From positions 1 to 40,904 of the IMG/VR virus record IMGVR_UViG_2687453163_000002: a stretch of DNA of 40,904 nt. The stretch is one strand, 5' to 3'. The position numbers and the translations under genes were made by a program. The notes below the pieces were generated by a model. That model saw only the letters and a list, made by a program, of their open reading frames with translations. It did no database searches and was not told the DNA's origin. Shown one piece after another: positions 191 to 40,904 of this stretch (position 1 is its first letter; the number at the start of each line of letters is the position of its first letter). The stretch comes from a virus (Duplodnaviria; Heunggongvirae; Uroviricota; Caudoviricetes).

Positions 191-208
191 TTTAAATCAA
201 TAAGTTAC
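145..208 (+). repeat. attL: attL core: 64-bp direct repeat (3' 46 nt of tRNA-Thr plus 18 bp) identical to 39155-39218
   Basis: Exact 64-bp match between 145-208 and 39155-39218; flanking bases differ on both sides; the integrase gene stop lies inside the repeat. Confidence 0.85.
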
Positions 209-1365
209 CTCGCATTTAAGTAAACCACGTTCTCCTCTTGTGCCGTATTTGTGCCATTGCGACTTATAATCGCATCGATTTTGCTTGCGTGCTCGGTGAG
301 ATGCCCGGCTGAAAGGTGGGCGTATCTTTGAACCATTTCGAGAGTTTCCCATCCTCCCATCTCTTTAAGTGCAAGAAGAGAGACACCGGACTGAACCAGC
401 CAGCTTGCCCAGGTATGCCTCAGATCATGGAAGCGGAAGTTGCTAATGCCTGCCCGCTTTAACGCTCCCTTCCATGCCTTGTTGCTGTCGGTTCTCATCT
501 TCCTTACCGCTGCTGTTTTTGTTCCGTCGCTTCGGTAGGCAGGTTTGGTGTGGACAAATACCCATCTCTTATGGAGCCCCTGCTGTTTTCTTAATATCTG
601 GCATGCGGTTTCGTTAAGAGGAACTCCGATCGCATTGCCAGCTTTTGTTTCATCAGGGTGCATCCATGCCATTTTCTTATCCAGATCGACCTGTGACCAC
701 TCAAGGTCTGTAACGTTGGAACGGCGAAGGCCTGTCGTGATTGCAAACATGACCACAGGGAAGAAGTGAGGAGCAATTTCTGCAAACAGGCGCTTCGATT
801 CCTCCTCTGTAAGCCATCTGATGCGTCCATTCTTAACGCGTGGTGTTGATATTTTGGGTGCCCTGTCAAGCCATCCCCATTCAACAGCCATATTGAGAAT
901 GGCGCGAAGTATTGCCAGATGCCTCGTCTTCGTTCCTTTGCTTGCAAGCTTTGGTTTATACTCCGGCACCGGATTGCCAAGTCGCAAACACCTGTCCCGG
1001 CTCATCTCCCAGTTCAGGCGATGGCGGCGGTTTTCCATCCCGTCTACCGCCTCCATTATTTTTTCTGTTGTTATGTCAGAGAGAATGGCTTCTCTGAAGT
1101 GCAACATCCAGAACGATATAATGCTCTTGTCATCATCAATGGACTTCTTATCCGATTTCTCACGCAGCCACCGTATGCAGGCTTCCTTGAATAGCTTTTT
1201 CGGTGATTCCCCGAGATTTTTTACTCTCCACGCTTCTGCTTTCAGACGATCGTGAAGTTCTTGCGCTTGCCTTTTGTCCGATGTTTCAAGAGAGCGTCTA
1301 ACTCTTGATCCATCTGGCGCGACGAAATCGCAGTGCCACGTGCCACCGCGTAGTTTGATTGACAT
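205..1365 (-). CDS. int: tyrosine integrase (P22 Int-like)
   Basis: 386-aa ORF abutting the tRNA; C-terminal catalytic-region motifs HDLRHTWAS...GGW...RYAHL typical of tyrosine recombinases. Confidence 0.9.
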   Translation of the reverse strand: MSIKLRGGTWHCDFVAPDGSRVRRSLETSDKRQAQELHDRLKAEAWRVKNLGESPKKLFKEACIRWLREKSDKKSIDDDKSIISFWMLHFREAILSDITTEKIMEAVDGMENRRHRLNWEMSRDRCLRLGNPVPEYKPKLASKGTKTRHLAILRAILNMAVEWGWLDRAPKISTPRVKNGRIRWLTEEESKRLFAEIAPHFFPVVMFAITTGLRRSNVTDLEWSQVDLDKKMAWMHPDETKAGNAIGVPLNETACQILRKQQGLHKRWVFVHTKPAYRSDGTKTAAVRKMRTDSNKAWKGALKRAGISNFRFHDLRHTWASWLVQSGVSLLALKEMGGWETLEMVQRYAHLSAGHLTEHASKIDAIISRNGTNTAQEENVVYLNAR

Positions 1366-9320: not shown

Positions 9321-9467
9321 ATGACAAAACAACTCAGTCCTTACCAGGACAAAATTCACAAACACATACTACGTGATCGCTTCCTGTCCAGCTTCAAGCA
9401 GCCTGGTCGATTCCGGGCTGAGTTGGAAAAAGTGAAGCTGATGCAGAAGGAGAAAGGTCATGAGTAA
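9321..9467 (+). CDS. small hypothetical protein (48 aa), translationally coupled to the initiator gene
   Basis: AGGAG 7 nt upstream of ATG 9321; stop overlaps the ATG of the downstream gene (ATGAGTAA). Confidence 0.4.
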
Positions 9468-10359
9468 CATATCTAATCTAGCCGAAGCCAGAGAGGCCAG
9501 AAGGCTACAACAACCGCATCAAAGCAGCGGTAAGGGGTATGCCTTGCTGCACCGTAAAATTATGGATGTGCCGTTTTACAAGGATGCAGAAGCAGCGCAT
9601 CTGTGGGTTCACTTAATCCTCAAAGCAAAGCATACGCCTGAGTATGTAATGACTGACGCAGGAGAAATTCTGGTAGGCAGAGGGAAGCTACTTGGCGGTA
9701 GAAACTCTCTGGCGTTTGAAACAGGACTCAAACCAGATCGCGTTCAGTACCTGCTTAGAAAGTTCAAAAAACTCGGCATGATTGACTGGGTTTCACACGG
9801 TAAATTCTCAGTTTTCTCAGTAGAGAAATATGACGATTATCAGTCAAATTTTGTACCAGCAGATTACCAGCAAATTACCACCTCAAAGCCAGCAATACCA
9901 ATGCCTGTAAGCAATGCTGTACCAGCAGATTACCAGCAAATTACCACAGATAAAGAATATAATAATATTATCTCTAATACTGACGTATTAGAGAGTGCCA
10001 CAGCAGACAAAAAGTCTGACAAGAAAAAACCTTCCGTCAGCTGTCAGGATGTTGTCGATGCTTACCACGAAATCCTTCCTGAAGCTCCAAGAATCCGCGC
10101 ACTGAATGACAAGCGTAAAAACCAGATCCGAACGTTCTGGCGCAAAGCCGGAGTGATAACCCGCCAGCTTGACGGGCATGGGTTCACGATGCAGGACTGG
10201 AGAAATTATTTGAGCTACGTTGGCGAAAATTGCCGATGGATGTTCGAAGAGCGCCCAAACCATCAACGCGGAACCGTCTGGCACAAAAAGGGATTTGATT
10301 TCCTGCTTAACGATAATACCTACCTGAAAGTTCGTGAGGGTGAACACGATGACCGATAA
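9460..10359 (+). CDS. replication initiation protein (lambda O-like / P22 gp18 analogue)
   Basis: 299-aa ORF between cII-like and DnaB-like genes; contains a mid-gene direct-repeat block followed by an AT-rich tract, as for lambda ori inside O. Confidence 0.7.
9846..9985 (+). repeat. ori: putative replication origin: two 30-bp direct repeats plus AT-rich tract
   Basis: GTACCAGCAGATTACCAGCAAATTACCAC at 9846-9875 and 9918-9947, then GATAAAGAATATAATAATATTATCTCTAATACTG. Confidence 0.6.
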
Positions 10360-15050: not shown

Positions 15051-15125
15051 GGGTCAGTCGTATAAAGGTCATTACGGAAGGCTGTTAACCTTCTTATCGT
15101 GGTTCGAGTCCACGCTGTCCCGCCA
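15051..15125 (+). tRNA. tRNA-like gene, anticodon GUU (Asn) by manual fold; one acceptor-stem mismatch
   Basis: Acceptor GGGTCAG/CTGTCCC (T:T at 4:69), anticodon stem GAAGG/CCTTC with loop CTGTTAA, T-arm CGTGG-TTCGAGT-CCACG, CCA end. Confidence 0.45.
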
Positions 15126-15130
15126 AACAT

Positions 15131-15206
15131 GCTGGTTTAGCTCCAATGGTAGAGCAGTCGCCTTGTAAGCGAATGGGTAGCGGTTCAAGTCCGTTAACCA
15201 GCACCA
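15131..15206 (+). tRNA. tRNA-Thr-like gene, anticodon UGU, by manual fold
   Basis: Perfect acceptor GCTGGTT/AACCAGC, D-stem GCTC/GAGC, anticodon loop CTTGTAA, T-arm AGCGG-TTCAAGT-CCGTT, discriminator A plus CCA. Confidence 0.7.
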
Positions 15207-33616: not shown

Positions 33617-33877
33617 TTATCTACTGTCTTTTTTGTATATCTTCTTGAGCGTATCAAAGACAATTTTCTTAACCATATCAGATTGTTGTTCTGCCATACG
33701 CTCTGCATCGTCAATGTAAACTGATGCAGAGTTTTGTTTATCCAGTGATTCTTCAATCGCTGCAATTATCTCTGAGTTCAGAGACCTGTTATTCATCTTC
33801 GCACGCTGCTTAATTTTCGCGTGGAGTTCATGCGGAAGTCTCAAGTGAAACTGCGCCTCGTCGTATTTGCTGTACAT
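33617..33877 (-). CDS. mnt: Mnt-like ribbon-helix-helix repressor (orphan)
   Basis: FHLRLPHELHAKIKQRAKMNNRSLNSEIIAAIEESL...DAERMAEQQSDMVKKIVFDTLKKIYKK resembles recalled P22 Mnt; start chosen at MYSKYD (GAGG 8 nt upstream). Confidence 0.7.
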   Translation of the reverse strand: MYSKYDEAQFHLRLPHELHAKIKQRAKMNNRSLNSEIIAAIEESLDKQNSASVYIDDAERMAEQQSDMVKKIVFDTLKKIYKKDSR

Positions 33878-34008
33878 CCTTGATGCCTCACCAATTGGGT
33901 GGAATGGCATCGTAACTTACTGGATAAATACTCAATAGTACCATTTCGGTATGCAATCACATCATGGTTGCATCATATCATTCGTCTGGAGCAATGAAAT
34001 GTCAGATA

Positions 34009-34509
34009 TCACCTACTCAACAGATGGTCAGCAACCATGTTTGCTGCCTTATAAGCTATAGCCGCTTCATCAATGGTGTTGAATCTCCCAAGGGTTATGT
34101 TTTTACCTGAGACATTTATCTGAGCTTGCCATTGATTTCTTGCTTGACAGAAAGTTACCCCCTTGATTCCAGCATTACTATTTCGAGGTCCGACATTTAA
34201 TGCATTTACGACTCTGCTGACATCCCTAAGGTTTGAGATTGCGTTATTTCTTCTGTTTCTATCAATGTGGTCAATCTCTTGTTTGGGCCATTCGCCATAT
34301 ACATACAGCCAGGCAAGTCTATGTGCAAAATATCTTACGCCATCAATATTAATTGCGTTATATCCATAAGAAATTGTGCCAGCAACTTTCCCAACAGCAC
34401 CTCTGGCGCTTAATTTCTTTTTCCAAGTGAAAATTCCTGTTTCTTTATTGTAATCGAGAACTTCCATAAGGCGCTCACGAGTTACTACCTCGTGACGTCT
34501 CTTACTCAT
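34009..34509 (-). CDS. HNH endonuclease with AP2-like DNA-binding domain
   Basis: HNH motif [20 protein letters not shown] and AP2-like [43 protein letters not shown]; start at MSKRRHEV with GGAG RBS; AT-rich. Confidence 0.7.
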
Positions 34510-34522
34510 TATTTTCTCCGGA

Positions 34523-36244
34523 ATGTTTATTATGCCAGAACAATTATACAACGTTGTTGTTTCACAACCAAGTCAGTTATTTACTTTAGCTCGCTCGTTT
34601 AAAGCAAATGCCAATGGCAAAATTTATATCGGTAAAATTGACACTGACCCGGTAAATCCTGAAAACCAGATTCAGGTTTATGTGGAGAACGAAGACGGAT
34701 CTCACGTCCCTGTTTCTCAGCCAATTGTTATCAATGCTGCAGGATATCCTGTGTACAACGGGCAGATTGCCAAATTTGTAACTGAGCAAGGCCATTCAAT
34801 GGCTGTATATGATGCGTATGGTTCGCAGCAGTTCTATTTTCAGAATGTGCTGAAGTACGATCCTGATCAGTTAAAGCAGTTACTTCAATCAGATGAAGGA
34901 GCTGCTCACATTGGCACTAATAGCGGGAAAAATCTCCAAGATGAGCTATTTGCAATAAAAAATGAAATATATCAAGACCCGCTTACATCGTGGCCTTTCG
35001 GTGGAACATTAAAAATAAAGCAAGGGGTGTATGATGTTACCACTCCTCTGGTACTTAATTATGATGATTACCCTGCCGACTTTGTAGGTGCTCCGGGTGT
35101 CCGCTGTTTTTACTCAGGCGAGAACATGGCTGAGACAATACTGGAATGTAGAGCTACTGATTTTAACGTAAAAATGCTAGGTGACGCAGCGTATAACAGT
35201 CAGAGATTGGCTGCATATGACTACATCGGCAACATGACGCTGAAAGGGAATCCCGGAAGTTACGGTATGCTGGTGCAGAATAAAGCACATACTCGTCTTG
35301 AGAACATTGTTATCTGCCGCCACCCTGACGGGGAAGGGTTACGCACTGACTCGATGCTCACGAGCGACATGACGAACGTGTACTTGCAGAGTAATCGTAT
35401 CGGTTGGCGTGCTACCAACTCCGTAAATCATTCTGAACTGAACGCTATAACTGCAAATAGGCTTACGTGCAGTCAGAACAGTGAATGGGGTATCCTCGGG
35501 GACCGCTGGGGTGCTGGTACAACTATCAATAGCCTGACTTGTGAAGGAAATGGTACTCAGGGGGATTCCAGTACAGGTGGTGCGCAATTAGCCATAAATG
35601 GCCTTAACGGTTCGTGTGCTTTGGTGTTAAACAACCCATACTTCGAGGCTAATGCCGGGGGGGCAGACCTTGCTATAGATAATACTGGGACGCGACCTGT
35701 AACTGTGGTTATAAACGGTGGAAATTTTCATCGCGTGAGCAGTGCAAGATACACGCACACGAATATTCAAGTAACAAGCTCAGGTGGGGGAAAAGTTACA
35801 GTCATACTCAACGGCACAACGTTCCAGAGCGCAGGGGATTATCAGCCAAGTGCAGAACGACCATACTGGATAACAGGAGCTAATTGCGAGGTAGTTGACA
35901 TTGGGTGTGTTTTTACAGAAACAACCAGTAAGGTAACATCGGCTTCTGCATTGTCAGTCACACGCTCGGGAAAAATTAACGCCAATGGTAGTATCGACGT
36001 TGCTACTGGTGTTTCATCGGTTAACGTGGTTTCTACAGGTGTGTATGATGTTAGCTTTTCTCATCCGCTCGCAGCAGTTGCTAGCGGTTATATTGTGCAG
36101 ATAACACCTATATCTGCGCCTGATTCAGTTAGTTGTGATGTTACTTATATTGGCGTAGATACATTTAGGGTGACCCTGCGCAATACGCTTAGCGGAGCAG
36201 GAATCTCCAGTTCGTTTGCATTTAGCATTACCAGACTACTATAA
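34523..36244 (+). CDS. tailspike protein (P22/Sf6-type head-binding domain, divergent receptor-binding domain)
   Basis: N-terminal [92 protein letters not shown] matches the conserved head-binding domain; C-terminal about 450 aa not recognised. Confidence 0.85.
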
Positions 36245-36250
36245 ACACGA

Positions 36251-36280
36251 CAGCCTCCCTACGGGAATACGTAGGGAGGC
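36251..36280. terminator. hairpin between convergent tailspike and gtrC genes
   Basis: Perfect 10-bp stem CCTCCCTACG / CGTAGGGAGG with loop GGAATA. Confidence 0.5.
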
Positions 36281-36310: not shown

Positions 36311-37576
36311 TTATTTTTTTATTAAATCAAGAGTTAACCATGGAGGGAGCACTGTAAATGAGACGGCTTCTCCATGTTTTGCTTTATTTATTAATTCTGC
36401 TCCTTGAGACCAGTTCATGTCAGGAAGAGGGGTTATAAAAAAGTTTAATTTTATCATTGCAATAAGGATGACTGAAACATAGATTTTAAAGAATATTTTT
36501 AAGGTTTTATTCTTTATGCATTGAAACAAACAAACGCATATTAATGAAAAAATTGCAATATGAATATTTACAAAATACCTTGACCCGTTTCCGGTTGCAA
36601 GTGTTGGCAGTTGAGGAACAGAATCTGCCAGTTGAGGTTTTGCCATAGAAAATGCGACAATAAGTATTGGAAGGGTGGCAAACACTTTCATTTGCCAATT
36701 TCCTTTAATATAAATGAAAACACATAATGTAATTACTAAAGTTGATAGTGTGTACGATAAAAGGTGATTATCCCATCCAGCATTAGCGATATTCCAAGGG
36801 ACAAATGAAAAAAGAAATACATTAGATGATATTATAGATGACATAACATCAAAACTGAATCCTAATGGAGCATGTGATCTTGTTCCATTAAATGTAAGAA
36901 TTATTGATGTTGCCTGTATCAGCCCACACAAGATCATTGCCAAATATGGCAGTCGAGTATAAAATAAGTATAAACCTCTTATGCTTATTACTCCTTTTGA
37001 TAAGTGTAAATATTTAAAAACAGATGATGCAATTATGAATATAATAAATGGACCGCTCAATCCAGATAATACTATAAAAAATAAATCATGTGCTTTCCAT
37101 AATTTTGACTTGGATTCTTCAGATATTATTATCATTGCAACATACAATGATAAATACCAGTGAGCATTTGTTATATTGGCTTGGACTTCATCAAGCCCGG
37201 GCATGCAAATTAAATATACAGAGATGAAGATTTTTGATGTGGTGCTTAGGAATTTAAATCTATCGGTAAATAAGAACCATATAATTATAGCTCTAATTAT
37301 TATTCCAAAAAAGTTTGATAATAATGGTGCGTAAATTGGATTAATAAATGTCGTCGCACCAACAATGAGTGTTGATACTGTTTGAAAATAACCATTTCTT
37401 GGGGTTATGAGTGAACTGAAAAAACCTTGTTCGTATGCATCTTTATACCAAAAAACTGCATCCTCAGCCCAAAACTGGGCATTTGTCAAAATGTCAATGC
37501 GCCTAAGCCAAATCAAAGTAAATGCAAGTATAAAAATTGATATCTTGTGCCAATTGCGCATTATGAATATCTTCAT
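36311..37576 (-). CDS. GtrC-like serotype-specific O-antigen glucosyltransferase (polytopic membrane protein)
   Basis: 421-aa, very hydrophobic, multi-TM, AT-rich ORF immediately downstream of gtrB. Confidence 0.65.
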   Translation of the reverse strand: MKIFIMRNWHKISIFILAFTLIWLRRIDILTNAQFWAEDAVFWYKDAYEQGFFSSLITPRNGYFQTVSTLIVGATTFINPIYAPLLSNFFGIIIRAIIIWFLFTDRFKFLSTTSKIFISVYLICMPGLDEVQANITNAHWYLSLYVAMIIISEESKSKLWKAHDLFFIVLSGLSGPFIIFIIASSVFKYLHLSKGVISIRGLYLFYTRLPYLAMILCGLIQATSIILTFNGTRSHAPLGFSFDVMSSIISSNVFLFSFVPWNIANAGWDNHLLSYTLSTLVITLCVFIYIKGNWQMKVFATLPILIVAFSMAKPQLADSVPQLPTLATGNGSRYFVNIHIAIFSLICVCLFQCIKNKTLKIFFKIYVSVILIAMIKLNFFITPLPDMNWSQGAELINKAKHGEAVSFTVLPPWLTLDLIKK

Positions 37577-37588
37577 AAGATCATCCTG

Positions 37589-38506
37589 TTATTTTCTGCT
37601 TTTAATTAAGTACCGTGGTCTTGATTTTGTTTCTAAATAAATTCTACCTATATATTCACCGAGAACACCAATCCCGATCAGTTGCACTCCACCCAGGAAA
37701 AGTATTGATACAAGCATGGAGGGATACCCGCGTACTGGGTTACCAAAGACAATGGTGTCTATAATCATCCATGCACCATATAAAAATGAAATGCTTGCAA
37801 CAAACAAGCCTATATAAGTCCATACGCGAAGAGGAAAGGTTGAAAAACTTGTGATACCTTCCAGTGCCAGATTCCATAATTTCCAGCCATTAAATTTTGA
37901 GATGCCAGCAACACGCTCTGTGCGTACATATTCAACGACATCTGTCTGACCACCAACCCAGCTCAGTATGCCTTTCATGAAAAGATTGCGCTCAGGCAAT
38001 AGTTTAATGTTCTCCACAACCTCACGAGACATGAGTCGAAAATCTCCGACATTTTCCTCTATTTTTGGGGTGCTTATTTTGTTGTGTAATTTATAGAACC
38101 ACTCAGCTGTCTTACGTTTCAGCCGTCCATCAGTTGAGCGGTCTGAACGTTTAGCAAGCACCATGTCAGCACCTGCCTGCCACTTTTCAATAAGATGAGG
38201 AATAACCTCAATCGGGTCTTGCAGGTCAACATCAATTGGAATCACGGCATCGCCGGTTGTATGGTCTAACCCTGCAAACAATGCTGGTTCTTTACCAAAG
38301 TTGCGTGTAAATGACAGCGGAACAACTAGCGGATCAGAAACAGCCAGAGCGTTAATGATTGACTCCGTAGCGTCTTTGCTTCCGTCATTTATGAAAACAA
38401 TTTCTACTTCATATGGCTTCAACTCTTCGAATTCACGTACCGTTTTATAAAAAATTGGTATCGCTTCTTCTTCATTGAAGACAGGAACGACAAGAGATAT
38501 CTTCAT
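37589..38506 (-). CDS. gtrB: GtrB bactoprenol glucosyltransferase (GT2 family)
   Basis: 305-aa [23 protein letters not shown]...INDGSKD...DVDLQDP, two C-terminal TM helices. Confidence 0.9.
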
Positions 38507-38865
38507 TTCGCATCCCTAAAGACAATGAACTTTGAATAGACGAAACCGCACACCAAGCTGATGGCGGAGAAGGTAACAAGAGTGACAATTGGAGGAAGTG
38601 AACATCTATCAGCAACCCATCCAACAGTAGCACTCAGTGTTCCCATGAACCCGACATATAACATGTAGCGCATCGTTGTAGTTGATGCTTTGAATGTGAA
38701 TTTTGCATTCGCAAAGAAGCTAAAACTCACAGCCACAACGAAACCTGCGAAGTTTGCCATAGCCTGATTGGTATGCGCGGCATAGATACATACACCAAAA
38801 ACCACCCAGTGTATAAGTGTGTTCAGCACGCCTATAGATGTGTACTTTGCAAATAGCTTTAACAT
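38503..38865 (-). CDS. gtrA: GtrA flippase-like small membrane protein
   Basis: 120-aa four-TM protein, first gene of the gtr operon, overlapping the gtrB start. Confidence 0.85.
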
Positions 38866-39154
38866 TTCTTCTATCAGCTAATAATCAAAGGCATGAAGTC
38901 TATCATCCAAGTCTCAATCGATCGATACTTGCGGTAGTTGATGAGAAAAACTCTGGCACACAAATCTTTGCACTGGATTGCAAGGCTTTGTGCTCTTCTG
39001 TGAATGTGTGGCTATATGTTTGAAGATCGTTGTGCCGTATTTGTGACATATATATGGCAACATCATTCATCAACTTTCTGTTTGTGCCATCAACTATATC
39101 TTAGTGAATGCGGTTAATGCTTGCTAAAACAGATAGTTATGATTGGTGCTACAG

Positions 39155-39218
39155 ATTCGTAATGCGAAGGTCGTAGGTTCGACTCCTATTATCGGCACCA
39201 TTTAAATCAATAAGTTAC
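39155..39218 (+). repeat. attR: attR core: 64-bp direct repeat of the tRNA-Thr 3' region
   Basis: Exact copy of 145-208; not a complete tRNA (5' half absent). Confidence 0.85.
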
Positions 39219-39663
39219 ACATCATTAGTACCTTCCTTATTTCTTGACTGGGACAAATTTGGGACCGATGGGTTCAGAATCAAGTCTATTTGCCGTGCGT
39301 GTTCGGTAAGGTGATTAGGTGCGAGGTGAGCATATCGACGAACCATTTCGATAGACTCCCAGCCTCCCATTTCCTGTAACACTGATAACGGGACTCCGGC
39401 TTGAACCAGCCAACTTGCCCAGGTGTGTCTCAAGTCGTGAAATCTGAAATCATCAATACCAGCCCGTCTCAGCGCCGCTTTCCAGGCTGTGTTTGCGTCA
39501 TACCGCATCTTCCTTACTGTTGGCGCTTTCGTTCCGTCTGGTTTGGTACAGCTTTCCTTGTACACAAATACCCAACGGTGATGATTTCCGATTTGTTTTT
39601 TCAATACGCGACATGCAGTATCATTCAGCGCAACGCCAATTGCGCGGTTTGATTTACTCTCTT
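39215..39663 (-). pseudogene. truncated second integrase (C-terminal about 150 aa only)
   Basis: Contains [42 protein letters not shown], related to but distinct from the intact int; 5' side replaced by the IS end at 39664. Confidence 0.8.
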
Positions 39664-39705
39664 TGAGGTGTACTGGCAATAGCGGACACTACCATTTGTT
39701 CTTTT

Positions 39706-40524
39706 TTAAGCAGCCATCTGATGATATTTTTCCCTGAAGGCTGCCGGGGAGATATTCCCCAGACGAGAGTGACGACGCTGACGATTGTAGAAAATCTCAA
39801 TGTATTCCCGTATTACTGAGATGGCTTCATCCCGGTTATTAAAACGATAGTGGCTCAGGCTCTCATTTTTCAGCGTTCCCCAGAAGCTTTCCATCGGAGC
39901 GTTGTCGTAACAGTTACCTTTACGCGACATTGATGTTTTCAGACCAGACTGCTCCTGTATGACCCGGTAATCGTATGCGCAGTACTGTGAACCTCGATCA
40001 GAGTGGTGGATTAGCCCGGCAGGTGGGCGCTGGCTCCTGAGCGCCATAAACAGGGCTTTACCTGTCAGCTCTTTTGTCATGCGCTCTCCCATGGCGTAGC
40101 CGACAATTTCGCACGTATAAACATCTTTGATGCCAGCGAGGTACAACCATCCCTCCTGTGTGGCAACATACGTCAGGTCCGCCACCCAGACCTGATTTGG
40201 TGCTGTAGGAGCGAACGTCTGGTTCAGCAGATTTGGCGCAACTGGCAGATTGTGGTTCGGGTTCGTAGTCGCTCTGAACTTGCGTTTCTGCTTACAGCGT
40301 AGCCTTAGCTCCTTACGAAGACGTGCCAGTCGGTCACGACCAACGATGATGCCATTCTCTGCCAGCTCCGTCTGGAGCCGCCGGGTTCCATATGTTTCGC
40401 GAGTGCGGATATGTGCCACCTTAATCTCCAGTTTTAGCCGCTCATCACTTTGTTTTCTGTCTGAGGGTTCATGCTGTACCCAGTTGTAATAACCGCTCCT
40501 GGATACACCAAATACCTGACACAT
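39706..40524 (-). CDS. IS3-family transposase OrfB (DDE integrase core)
   Basis: 272-aa ORF with DDE-type core (WVADLTY..., HSDRGSQY..., NAPMESFWGTLK). Confidence 0.85.
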   Translation of the reverse strand: MCQVFGVSRSGYYNWVQHEPSDRKQSDERLKLEIKVAHIRTRETYGTRRLQTELAENGIIVGRDRLARLRKELRLRCKQKRKFRATTNPNHNLPVAPNLLNQTFAPTAPNQVWVADLTYVATQEGWLYLAGIKDVYTCEIVGYAMGERMTKELTGKALFMALRSQRPPAGLIHHSDRGSQYCAYDYRVIQEQSGLKTSMSRKGNCYDNAPMESFWGTLKNESLSHYRFNNRDEAISVIREYIEIFYNRQRRHSRLGNISPAAFREKYHQMAA

Positions 40525-40559
40525 CGCTTCAATGGGAAATTGTTGTCGCCATTGTTCGA

Positions 40560-40904
40560 TTAACGCGTATTTTTCAGCGACTCCTGTGCAAAATACGCTG
40601 TTGCTTTTTTTAATATATCTCGCTCAAGGCGAGCTTCATTTAACGCCTTACGCAGTTGCAGAATTTCAGATTCCAGTTCAGCCAGCGTGCGGGAACCAGG
40701 AGTACCGAGCCCTTTTCTGGCGGCGGTAACCCATTGTCCTAAAGTGCCTTCAGGAAGAGATAATCGGGAAGCGCCTTCACTGATCGAAAGTTGATTTTCA
40801 AGAACCGTTCTGACAGCTTCGGCTTTGAACTCTTTAGAGTAACGTTGAACCGCCCCGGGTTTCCTGGAGAGTGTTTTATCTGTGAACTCAGGCTGCCAGA
40901 TCAT
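40560..40904 (-). CDS. IS3-family OrfA (HTH), start uncertain, runs to the window edge
   Basis: QRYSKEFKAEAVRTVLENQLSISEGASRLSLPEGTLGQWV HTH plus leucine-zipper-like C-terminus, matching recalled IS600 OrfA. Confidence 0.75.
   Translation of the reverse strand: MIWQPEFTDKTLSRKPGAVQRYSKEFKAEAVRTVLENQLSISEGASRLSLPEGTLGQWVTAARKGLGTPGSRTLAELESEILQLRKALNEARLERDILKKATAYFAQESLKNTR

Follow-up and report, generated by a model that had tools for sequence, protein, structure and literature searches.

What do the three genes at the right end of this prophage encode, and do they belong to the prophage at all? The window analysed here is a stretch of viral DNA of 40,904 nucleotides, and an earlier note, made from the letters alone, had read positions 36311–38865 as a gtrABC-type cassette for O-antigen glucosylation. 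The list of open reading frames bears out that layout: three co-oriented genes lie on the minus strand, gtrA at 38503–38865 (120 aa), gtrB at 37589–38506 (305 aa), and a third gene of 421 aa, counted from the first ATG, at 36311–37576. We conclude that the region is almost certainly the gtrA-gtrB-gtrX O-antigen glucosylation operon of phage SfX, located at attR of a P22-like prophage integrated in thrW. The basis for this reading is that each of the three proteins is identified with characterized proteins of SfX or other Sf phages, together with intact reading frames, the layout of the genes, their folds, and the prophage junctions; the sequence offers no evidence to the contrary.

The operon is tightly packed beside attR, with a 4-nt overlap between gtrA and gtrB and a 12-nt gap between gtrB and the third gene, and the open reading frame list shows no IS element interrupting it. 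The tailspike gene runs toward the cassette on the plus strand (ORF 34523–36244), and the convergent orientation that had been described is correct. The third gene had also been called strongly AT-rich, and its GC content is indeed 31.8%, compared to 41.5% for gtrB and 43.3% for gtrA. Its GC3 is 25.6%, and the prophage overall has a GC content of 46.9% (composition count). The make-up is that of a gtr cassette: a GtrA-family first gene, a GT2 second gene, and a low-GC polytopic third gene, in a tight operon by an att site.

The third gene, put forward earlier as a candidate serotype-specific GtrC, already has a name. A megablast search against phage records returned L05001.1, ‘Bacteriophage X glucosyl transferase gene’, with 99.9% identity over 1383 nt, and residues 6–421 of the predicted protein are identical at 416/416 positions to the product of that record (AAA71895.1). 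Because of this identity, the serotype-specific gene can be named as gtrX of Shigella flexneri phage SfX, a characterized gene and not merely ‘a GtrC’. In a public collection, 1795 blocks contain exactly this 421-aa protein, under the name ‘glucosyl transferase [Shigella flexneri]’; ADA72694.1 is the accession of the 416-aa form. When set against the gtrA-gtrB-gtrX operon of SfX (L05001, U82084; prophage in S. flexneri Xv 2002017, CP001383), the window cassette shows no differences, and public assemblies of S. flexneri with the identical cassette number well over a thousand. The feature is the already known, experimentally characterized SfX gtrABX cassette and in that sense an ordinary one; the earlier note was correct both in what it observed and in how it read it.

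The two lengths of GtrX reflect two choices of start codon. In the 1993 record L05001 the start is placed at Met6 (the ATG at 37561), for a protein of 416 aa. AGGA lies ahead of the first ATG (37576) at a spacing of 7 nt; an E. coli GtrX homologue is called at 421 aa in RefSeq; and the closest homologues (61–70% identity) begin at a methionine aligned with Met1 and have none at position 6. On these grounds the 421-aa start appears to have the stronger support of the two.

The gtrA and gtrB assignments survived homology searches across Pfam, PHROG, UniRef, and PDB, as well as comparison to SfV. GtrA, a small membrane protein and proposed undecaprenyl-phosphate-glucose flippase, matches Pfam GtrA_DPMS_TM (PF04138, 2.6e-13) and, over its full length, the PHROG family ‘GtrA-like O-antigen conversion’ (2.5e-70). 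Its sequence is exactly that of the UniRef/UniProt entry GTRA_BPSFX and was found on at least 999 contigs. GtrB, a GT2 bactoprenol (undecaprenyl-phosphate) glucosyltransferase, matches Pfam Glycos_transf_2 (PF00535, 1.2e-30) and the PHROG family GtrB (1e-181). Residues 2–302 of GtrB also match PDB entry 5EKP (‘Glycosyltransferase sll0501’, E = 8e-89), which we take to be the Synechocystis GtrB structure; the next-best PDB match is the Und-P-Ara4FN synthase ArnC, at about 1e-43. Near the C-terminus of GtrB there are two hydrophobic segments, at residues 231–254 and 261–286 (two helices).

Phages SfI, SfII, SfV, and SfIV are 85–93% similar to the window at the DNA level over gtrB, gtrA, att, and int, and this similarity ends within the last 30–50 bp of gtrB. 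We read the break at the 3′ end of gtrB as the classic pattern of conserved gtrA and gtrB with a swapped third gene. In SfV (gtrA-gtrB-gtrV, U82619), the operon order and the place beside attP-int are the same as in the window, with GtrB 95% and GtrA 90% identical. The acceptor site differs, and the product is the type V antigen in place of group 7;8. SfV is also a myovirus with cos packaging (PMC3636060), unlike the P22-like phage of the window. Even so, the third proteins are related: GtrX and GtrV share 35% identity over their full length (hhalign E = 7.8e-91), which marks GtrV as a genuine homologue, such that ‘type-specific’ should not be taken to mean unrelated to every other Gtr. Residue D386 of GtrX aligns with GtrV D380, which was reported to be functionally important (PMC3259042). 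Profile comparison of GtrX with GtrII, GtrI, and P22 GtrC showed no relationship (probabilities of 0.3–4%), and thus ‘GtrC’ is not a single sequence family.

No family model in Pfam (E ≤ 0.01) or NCBIfam matched the 421-aa protein, so the assignment of GtrX rests on its identity to a characterized protein and on its fold. The earlier note expected a polytopic membrane protein, and this is supported by seven to eight strongly hydrophobic 19-mers on the Kyte–Doolittle scale and by a near-all-helix AlphaFold model. A homology search recovered only forty clusters at 90% identity. The AlphaFold2 model, built on an alignment of 33 homologues, has a mean pLDDT of 91.2 and a pTM of 0.90, and it consists of about 11–12 long helices with a small C-terminal beta-hairpin; the C-terminal soluble element is roughly forty residues. 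In a fold comparison, every strong structural neighbour of the model was a GT-C glycosyltransferase. The model thus places GtrX in the GT-C fold of polyprenyl-phosphate-sugar glycosyltransferases. The multi-helix membrane fold is held in common with ArnT, PglB/AglB/STT3, the PMTs, the ALG enzymes, and AftA/B, though sequence identity to these GT-C enzymes is just 7–11%, and GtrX, at 421 aa, is small and lacks their large periplasmic domain.

The sequence and family searches leave one other reading of the third gene to consider, namely that it encodes a ‘GtrC’ that is not a glucosyltransferase (for example an acyltransferase, like GtrC of Salmonella family 2) or is an unrelated moron, AT-rich and coding for a membrane protein. 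Searching PDB sequences with the 33-sequence GtrX profile gave no match even at E = 10, and this result, the lack of Pfam and NCBIfam matches, and the lack of profile similarity to GtrI, GtrII, and P22 GtrC are what such a reading would draw upon. It has to contend with a protein that is identical to the genetically characterized GtrX, is a full-length homologue of GtrV, has GT-C structural neighbours, and matches the PHROG family ‘glucosyltransferase’ at 5.4e-49. No Acyl_transf_3 (acyltransferase-3) membrane domain was found in GtrX by Pfam (E ≤ 0.01). We consider the non-glucosyltransferase reading refuted for practical purposes, with a negligible chance of being correct.

Conservation among the homologues singles out a limited set of residues. 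W36, E38, D39, W43, Y63, Q65, and P126 are invariant in 33/33 full-length GtrX homologues, as are E130, N134, T136, N137, D164, S174-G-P-F177, Q221, R333, Y334, and P411. The conserved acidic pair E38 and D39, which is invariant in 33/33 homologues, sits in the motif W-A-E-D and would lie in the first extracytoplasmic loop, on the periplasmic side.

The second question is whether the cassette belongs to the intact prophage. The thrW gene for tRNA-Thr(CGT) was found at 115–190 on the plus strand by ARAGORN and Rfam (across the entire window, Rfam detected three tRNAs and nothing else). A perfect 64-nt direct repeat brackets the prophage, with attL at 145–208 and attR at 39155–39218 (both plus strand), the latter comprising a duplicated 3′ part of the tRNA gene plus 18 nt. 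The span from att to att is 39,010 bp, and gtrA ends 290 bp from the right copy, which agrees with its proposed place at the right end of the prophage. The intact SfX integrase gene lies at the left end (205–1365, minus strand; 386 aa; PHROG integrase, 3.4e-71). Just outside attR there is an integrase remnant (39215–39679, minus strand) that is not part of the cassette; it encodes the C-terminal 154 aa of an SfV/SfII-type integrase and is truncated by IS600, which runs from about 39663 to beyond 40904. The RefSeq label on the IS matches is ‘IS3-like element IS600 family transposase’. The remnant is 94% identical to residues 236–387 of SfV Int and only 61% identical to the prophage’s own integrase. 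The remnant is thus what is left of an SfV/SfII-type prophage that previously occupied this site.

With such a relic next door, the gtr cassette could itself be a leftover of the older, degraded prophage (the one with the integrase stump at 39215–39679) and not part of the intact P22-like one. Taken together, gtrA, att, and the partial int do resemble an unsplit attP region, and the match to the gtrB-gtrA-attP-int segment of SfI, SfII, and SfV is at about 93%. The att repeat, however, separates gtrA from the stump, and the deposited SfX attP record (U82084) settles on which side of the junction the cassette falls. Positions 38918–39218 of the window are 100% identical to U82084 and the identity stops exactly at 39218, the end of the repeat; it resumes at the left end, where the C-terminal 154 aa of the integrase match the int of that record at 100%. 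Since joining the two prophage ends restores the SfX attP, we take this as proof of a canonical SfX integration with the cassette inside the prophage. In addition, the 1993 record of SfX gtrX already has the 3′ end of this tailspike beside gtrX, and the stump encodes an integrase of the SfV type (94%), whereas the third gene of the cassette is gtrX. We thus regard a home in the older prophage as very improbable; the att junction analysis rejects the cassette as part of a degraded neighbour.

The SfX prophage reading also agrees with what is known of the phage. SfX is a pac-packaging podovirus (PMC3636060, PMC3851460) that integrates at thrW, between proA and yaiC (PMC3306764). In the window, the morphogenesis and structural genes are 95–97.5% identical to those of Sf6, HK620, and related P22-like phages, and these genes and the thrW site fit published SfX. 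The cassette occupies the same position in the SfX reference and in the window, between the tailspike and attP/int, with thrW integration as published (PMC3306764). One difference is in the integrase gene, which is intact in the window but interrupted by IS2 in the SfX record U82084.

The gtrABC cassette of P22 offers a further comparison. P22 has the same architecture, with the tailspike gene convergent to gtrC, followed by gtrB, gtrA, attP, and int, in what is likewise a P22-like podovirus. It also has the same thrW-type att core, and the att repeat of the window prophage aligns with the P22 attP core. P22 GtrC has no detectable sequence relationship to GtrX. The annotated gtrC terminator of P22 sits between gene 9 and gtrC, and a hairpin in the window is placed in the same way, at 36253–36280 between the two convergent stop codons (no strand assigned). 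Its stem is GC-rich and 11 bp long; the terminator-like match on the minus strand has 11 pairs, eight of them G-C. This hairpin is likely the terminator of the gtr operon, and it probably terminates the tailspike transcript as well. Six public genomes with an identical GtrX match the 66-nt spacer between the tailspike gene and gtrX at 100%.

The upstream regions of the two cassettes also differ. In P22, gtr phase variation by Dam and OxyR has a recognizable signature of four GATC sites, arranged as two pairs with a 13-nt spacing within each and overlapping OxyR half-sites, of which there are three (PMC2909390). The region upstream of gtrA in the window, which forms the phage arm of attR (38866–39154, minus strand), is the expected site of the gtr promoter. 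This signature is absent there: two GATC sites were found, at −163 and −58 (105 nt apart), and no OxyR half-site scored at least 8/10. The same scan applied to P22 as a positive control recovered four GATC sites spaced 13/51/13 and three half-sites. Given that the signature is missing here yet was recovered in the control, the Dam/OxyR mechanism is predicted not to operate on the window cassette; the four-GATC/OxyR switch of P22 (PMC2909390) is absent from it. A consensus promoter scan gave no more matches than shuffled sequence, and no convincing sigma-70 promoter was identified upstream of gtrA.

What the operon would do follows the three-component Gtr model (summarized in PMC2909390 and PMC3306764). 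GtrB, at the cytoplasmic face, would transfer glucose from UDP-glucose to undecaprenyl phosphate as a GT2 enzyme; GtrA would move the resulting Und-P-glucose to the periplasmic face; and GtrX, as an integral membrane enzyme with a GT-C fold, would attach this glucose to one particular rhamnose within the growing O-antigen repeat. The product would be group antigen 7;8, converting serotype Y to X or, with other modification genes, giving 3a, 2b, 5b, 1d, or Xv. In the older numbering of Allison and Verma, the glucosylated residue is reportedly rhamnose I, in an alpha-1,3 linkage. More recent work terms the residue glucosylated through gtrX RhaIII, and names gtrX as the gene that specifies group 7;8, a determinant carried by serotypes X, Xv, 1d, 2b, 3a, and 5b (PMC3728103). 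The O-antigen-converting activity of GtrX has been shown experimentally (PMC3306764, PMC9243986, PMC3728103): SfX converts strain 036 from serotype Y to X (PMC3306764), and NMR has verified that a gtrX clone including the gene’s own promoter modifies the O-antigen (PMC9243986). For the window strain, expression, the single enzymatic steps, and the resulting serotype are inferred from this literature, and the final serotype also depends on genes outside the window.

A silent or non-functional cassette, comparable to the cryptic gtrX of some serotype Yv isolates, would leave the O-antigen of the window strain unglucosylated. Natural mutations that inactivate gtrX or gtrB, as well as IS insertions, are documented (PMC3728103, PMC10132075), and the failure of the consensus scan to identify a promoter would fit. 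We nonetheless judge this outcome quite unlikely. None of the three ORFs is truncated, GtrX has the same sequence as the functional reference, and the operon is free of IS interruption. The T deletion at position 1125 described in Yv strains is absent, since the frame runs through to residue 421. Moreover, several public genomes match gtrA, gtrB, and the complete upstream region at 100% identity.

In practical terms, gtrABX is a standard S. flexneri serotype determinant and a routine target of PCR-based and in silico serotyping. Its presence marks the window as an SfX-lysogenized chromosome of the S. flexneri type, for which the group 7;8 antigen is predicted; other loci would decide between serotypes X, Xv, 3a, 2b, 5b, and 1d. 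The finding is useful for annotation and epidemiology and does not open a new biological question.

Outside the cassette, the prophage does show some differences. SfX in strain 2002017 has been quoted at 37,355 bp (PMC3636060), and given the 39,010-bp span measured here, the window prophage need not match the reference SfX beyond the cassette. An HNH-AP2 endonuclease gene is inserted upstream of the tailspike gene. The tailspike itself is of the P22 type (573 aa from the first ATG; Head_binding, 4.2e-62; PHROG tail protein, 1.4e-292). Its start is probably at 34532, for a protein of 570 aa, as called in public genomes; S. flexneri genomes carry a 570-aa Head_binding gene in the equivalent position. 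In its receptor-binding part the window tailspike shares 74% identity with the tail protein of Sf101 and 72% with that of Sf11, and this part had no match in Sf6.

In the six public genomes with an identical GtrX, gtrX, gtrB, gtrA, and both flanking spacers are 99.8–100% identical to the window, while the tailspike is 96.7–98.3% identical, or about 90% identical over its 3′ part only. Based on the longer span (39.0 vs 37.4 kb), the HNH-AP2 gene, and a tailspike that has diverged by 1.7–3.3% compared to a cassette at 99.8–100%, we tentatively raise the possibility, to which we give somewhat less than even chances, that this prophage is a distinct SfX variant and that the gtrX module is shuffled among P22-like backbones with faster-evolving receptor-binding proteins. 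The six genomes have the tailspike side in common and differ in the DNA beyond attR. In one public genome, CP020339, the cassette is followed by the same integrase stump, then by an IS and, in the yaiC position, a gene with a GGDEF domain.

The cassette adjoins a more variable gene, the tailspike (34523-36244, + strand). Among the gtrX-carrying genomes, the tailspike differs by 1.7-10%, whereas the adjoining cassette differs by only 0-0.2%. Its receptor-binding part most resembles tail proteins from two S. flexneri phages, Sf101 (74%) and Sf11 (72%), and not the Sf6 endorhamnosidase. Between the tailspike start and an Arc/Mnt-like repressor gene (33617-33910) lies a gene for an HNH-AP2 endonuclease (34009-34551, - strand), which is present in some public gtrX-carrying genomes (L009, L013, and L014) and absent from others (L010-L012). 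It is possibly a mobile insertion of the homing type, and it may explain part of the difference in size between this prophage (39,010 bp from att to att) and the 37,355 bp quoted for SfX in strain 2002017.

Within the cassette, the start of GtrX (37561-37576) is placed at Met6 in GenBank L05001, giving a protein of 416 aa. Met1 (421 aa) is favoured over Met6 by a Shine-Dalgarno AGGA, by the way RefSeq calls the start, and by where the homologues begin in the alignment. Upstream of gtrA, the four-GATC/OxyR phase-variation signature of P22 is absent from 38866-39154. Only one GATC is conserved; it lies at -58 and is the counterpart of the final P22 site.

Immediately beyond attR, the region 39215-40904 holds the C-terminal 154 aa of an SfV/SfII-type integrase, cut off by a copy of IS600. 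This stump shares 94% identity with SfV Int but only 61% with the prophage's own integrase. It looks like the remnant of an older prophage at thrW, in which case SfX would have inserted beside the relic. Inside the prophage, genes for tRNA-Asn(GTT) and tRNA-Thr(TGT) are found at 15051-15206, with the genes for lysis and morphogenesis downstream of them. There are also two 35-nt direct repeats (9847-9947; 94% identical, 66 nt apart) within the ORF at 9460-10359, which are possibly origin iterons in a replication-initiator gene.

Of 5426 complete E. coli genomes, only one carries a near-identical, near-full-length match to the cassette: PapM-32-1, from a baboon (locus L005, NZ_CP049204.1, 4333-8666; 96.5% nucleotide identity over 2.8 kb). 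Thirteen further genomes in this set reach about 81% query coverage at about 80% identity. In PapM-32-1 the gtrX-like cassette and a tailspike with a head-binding domain belong to a P22-like prophage that adjoins ybhB-bioA, and the integration site is therefore other than thrW. The GtrX/GtrV family as a whole is small, with forty clusters at 90% identity in the GtrX homology search. Two full-length members (P0072 and P0078; 30-32% identity) are annotated as coming from Patescibacteria/Moranbacteria metagenome-assembled genomes, far beyond the Enterobacteriaceae.
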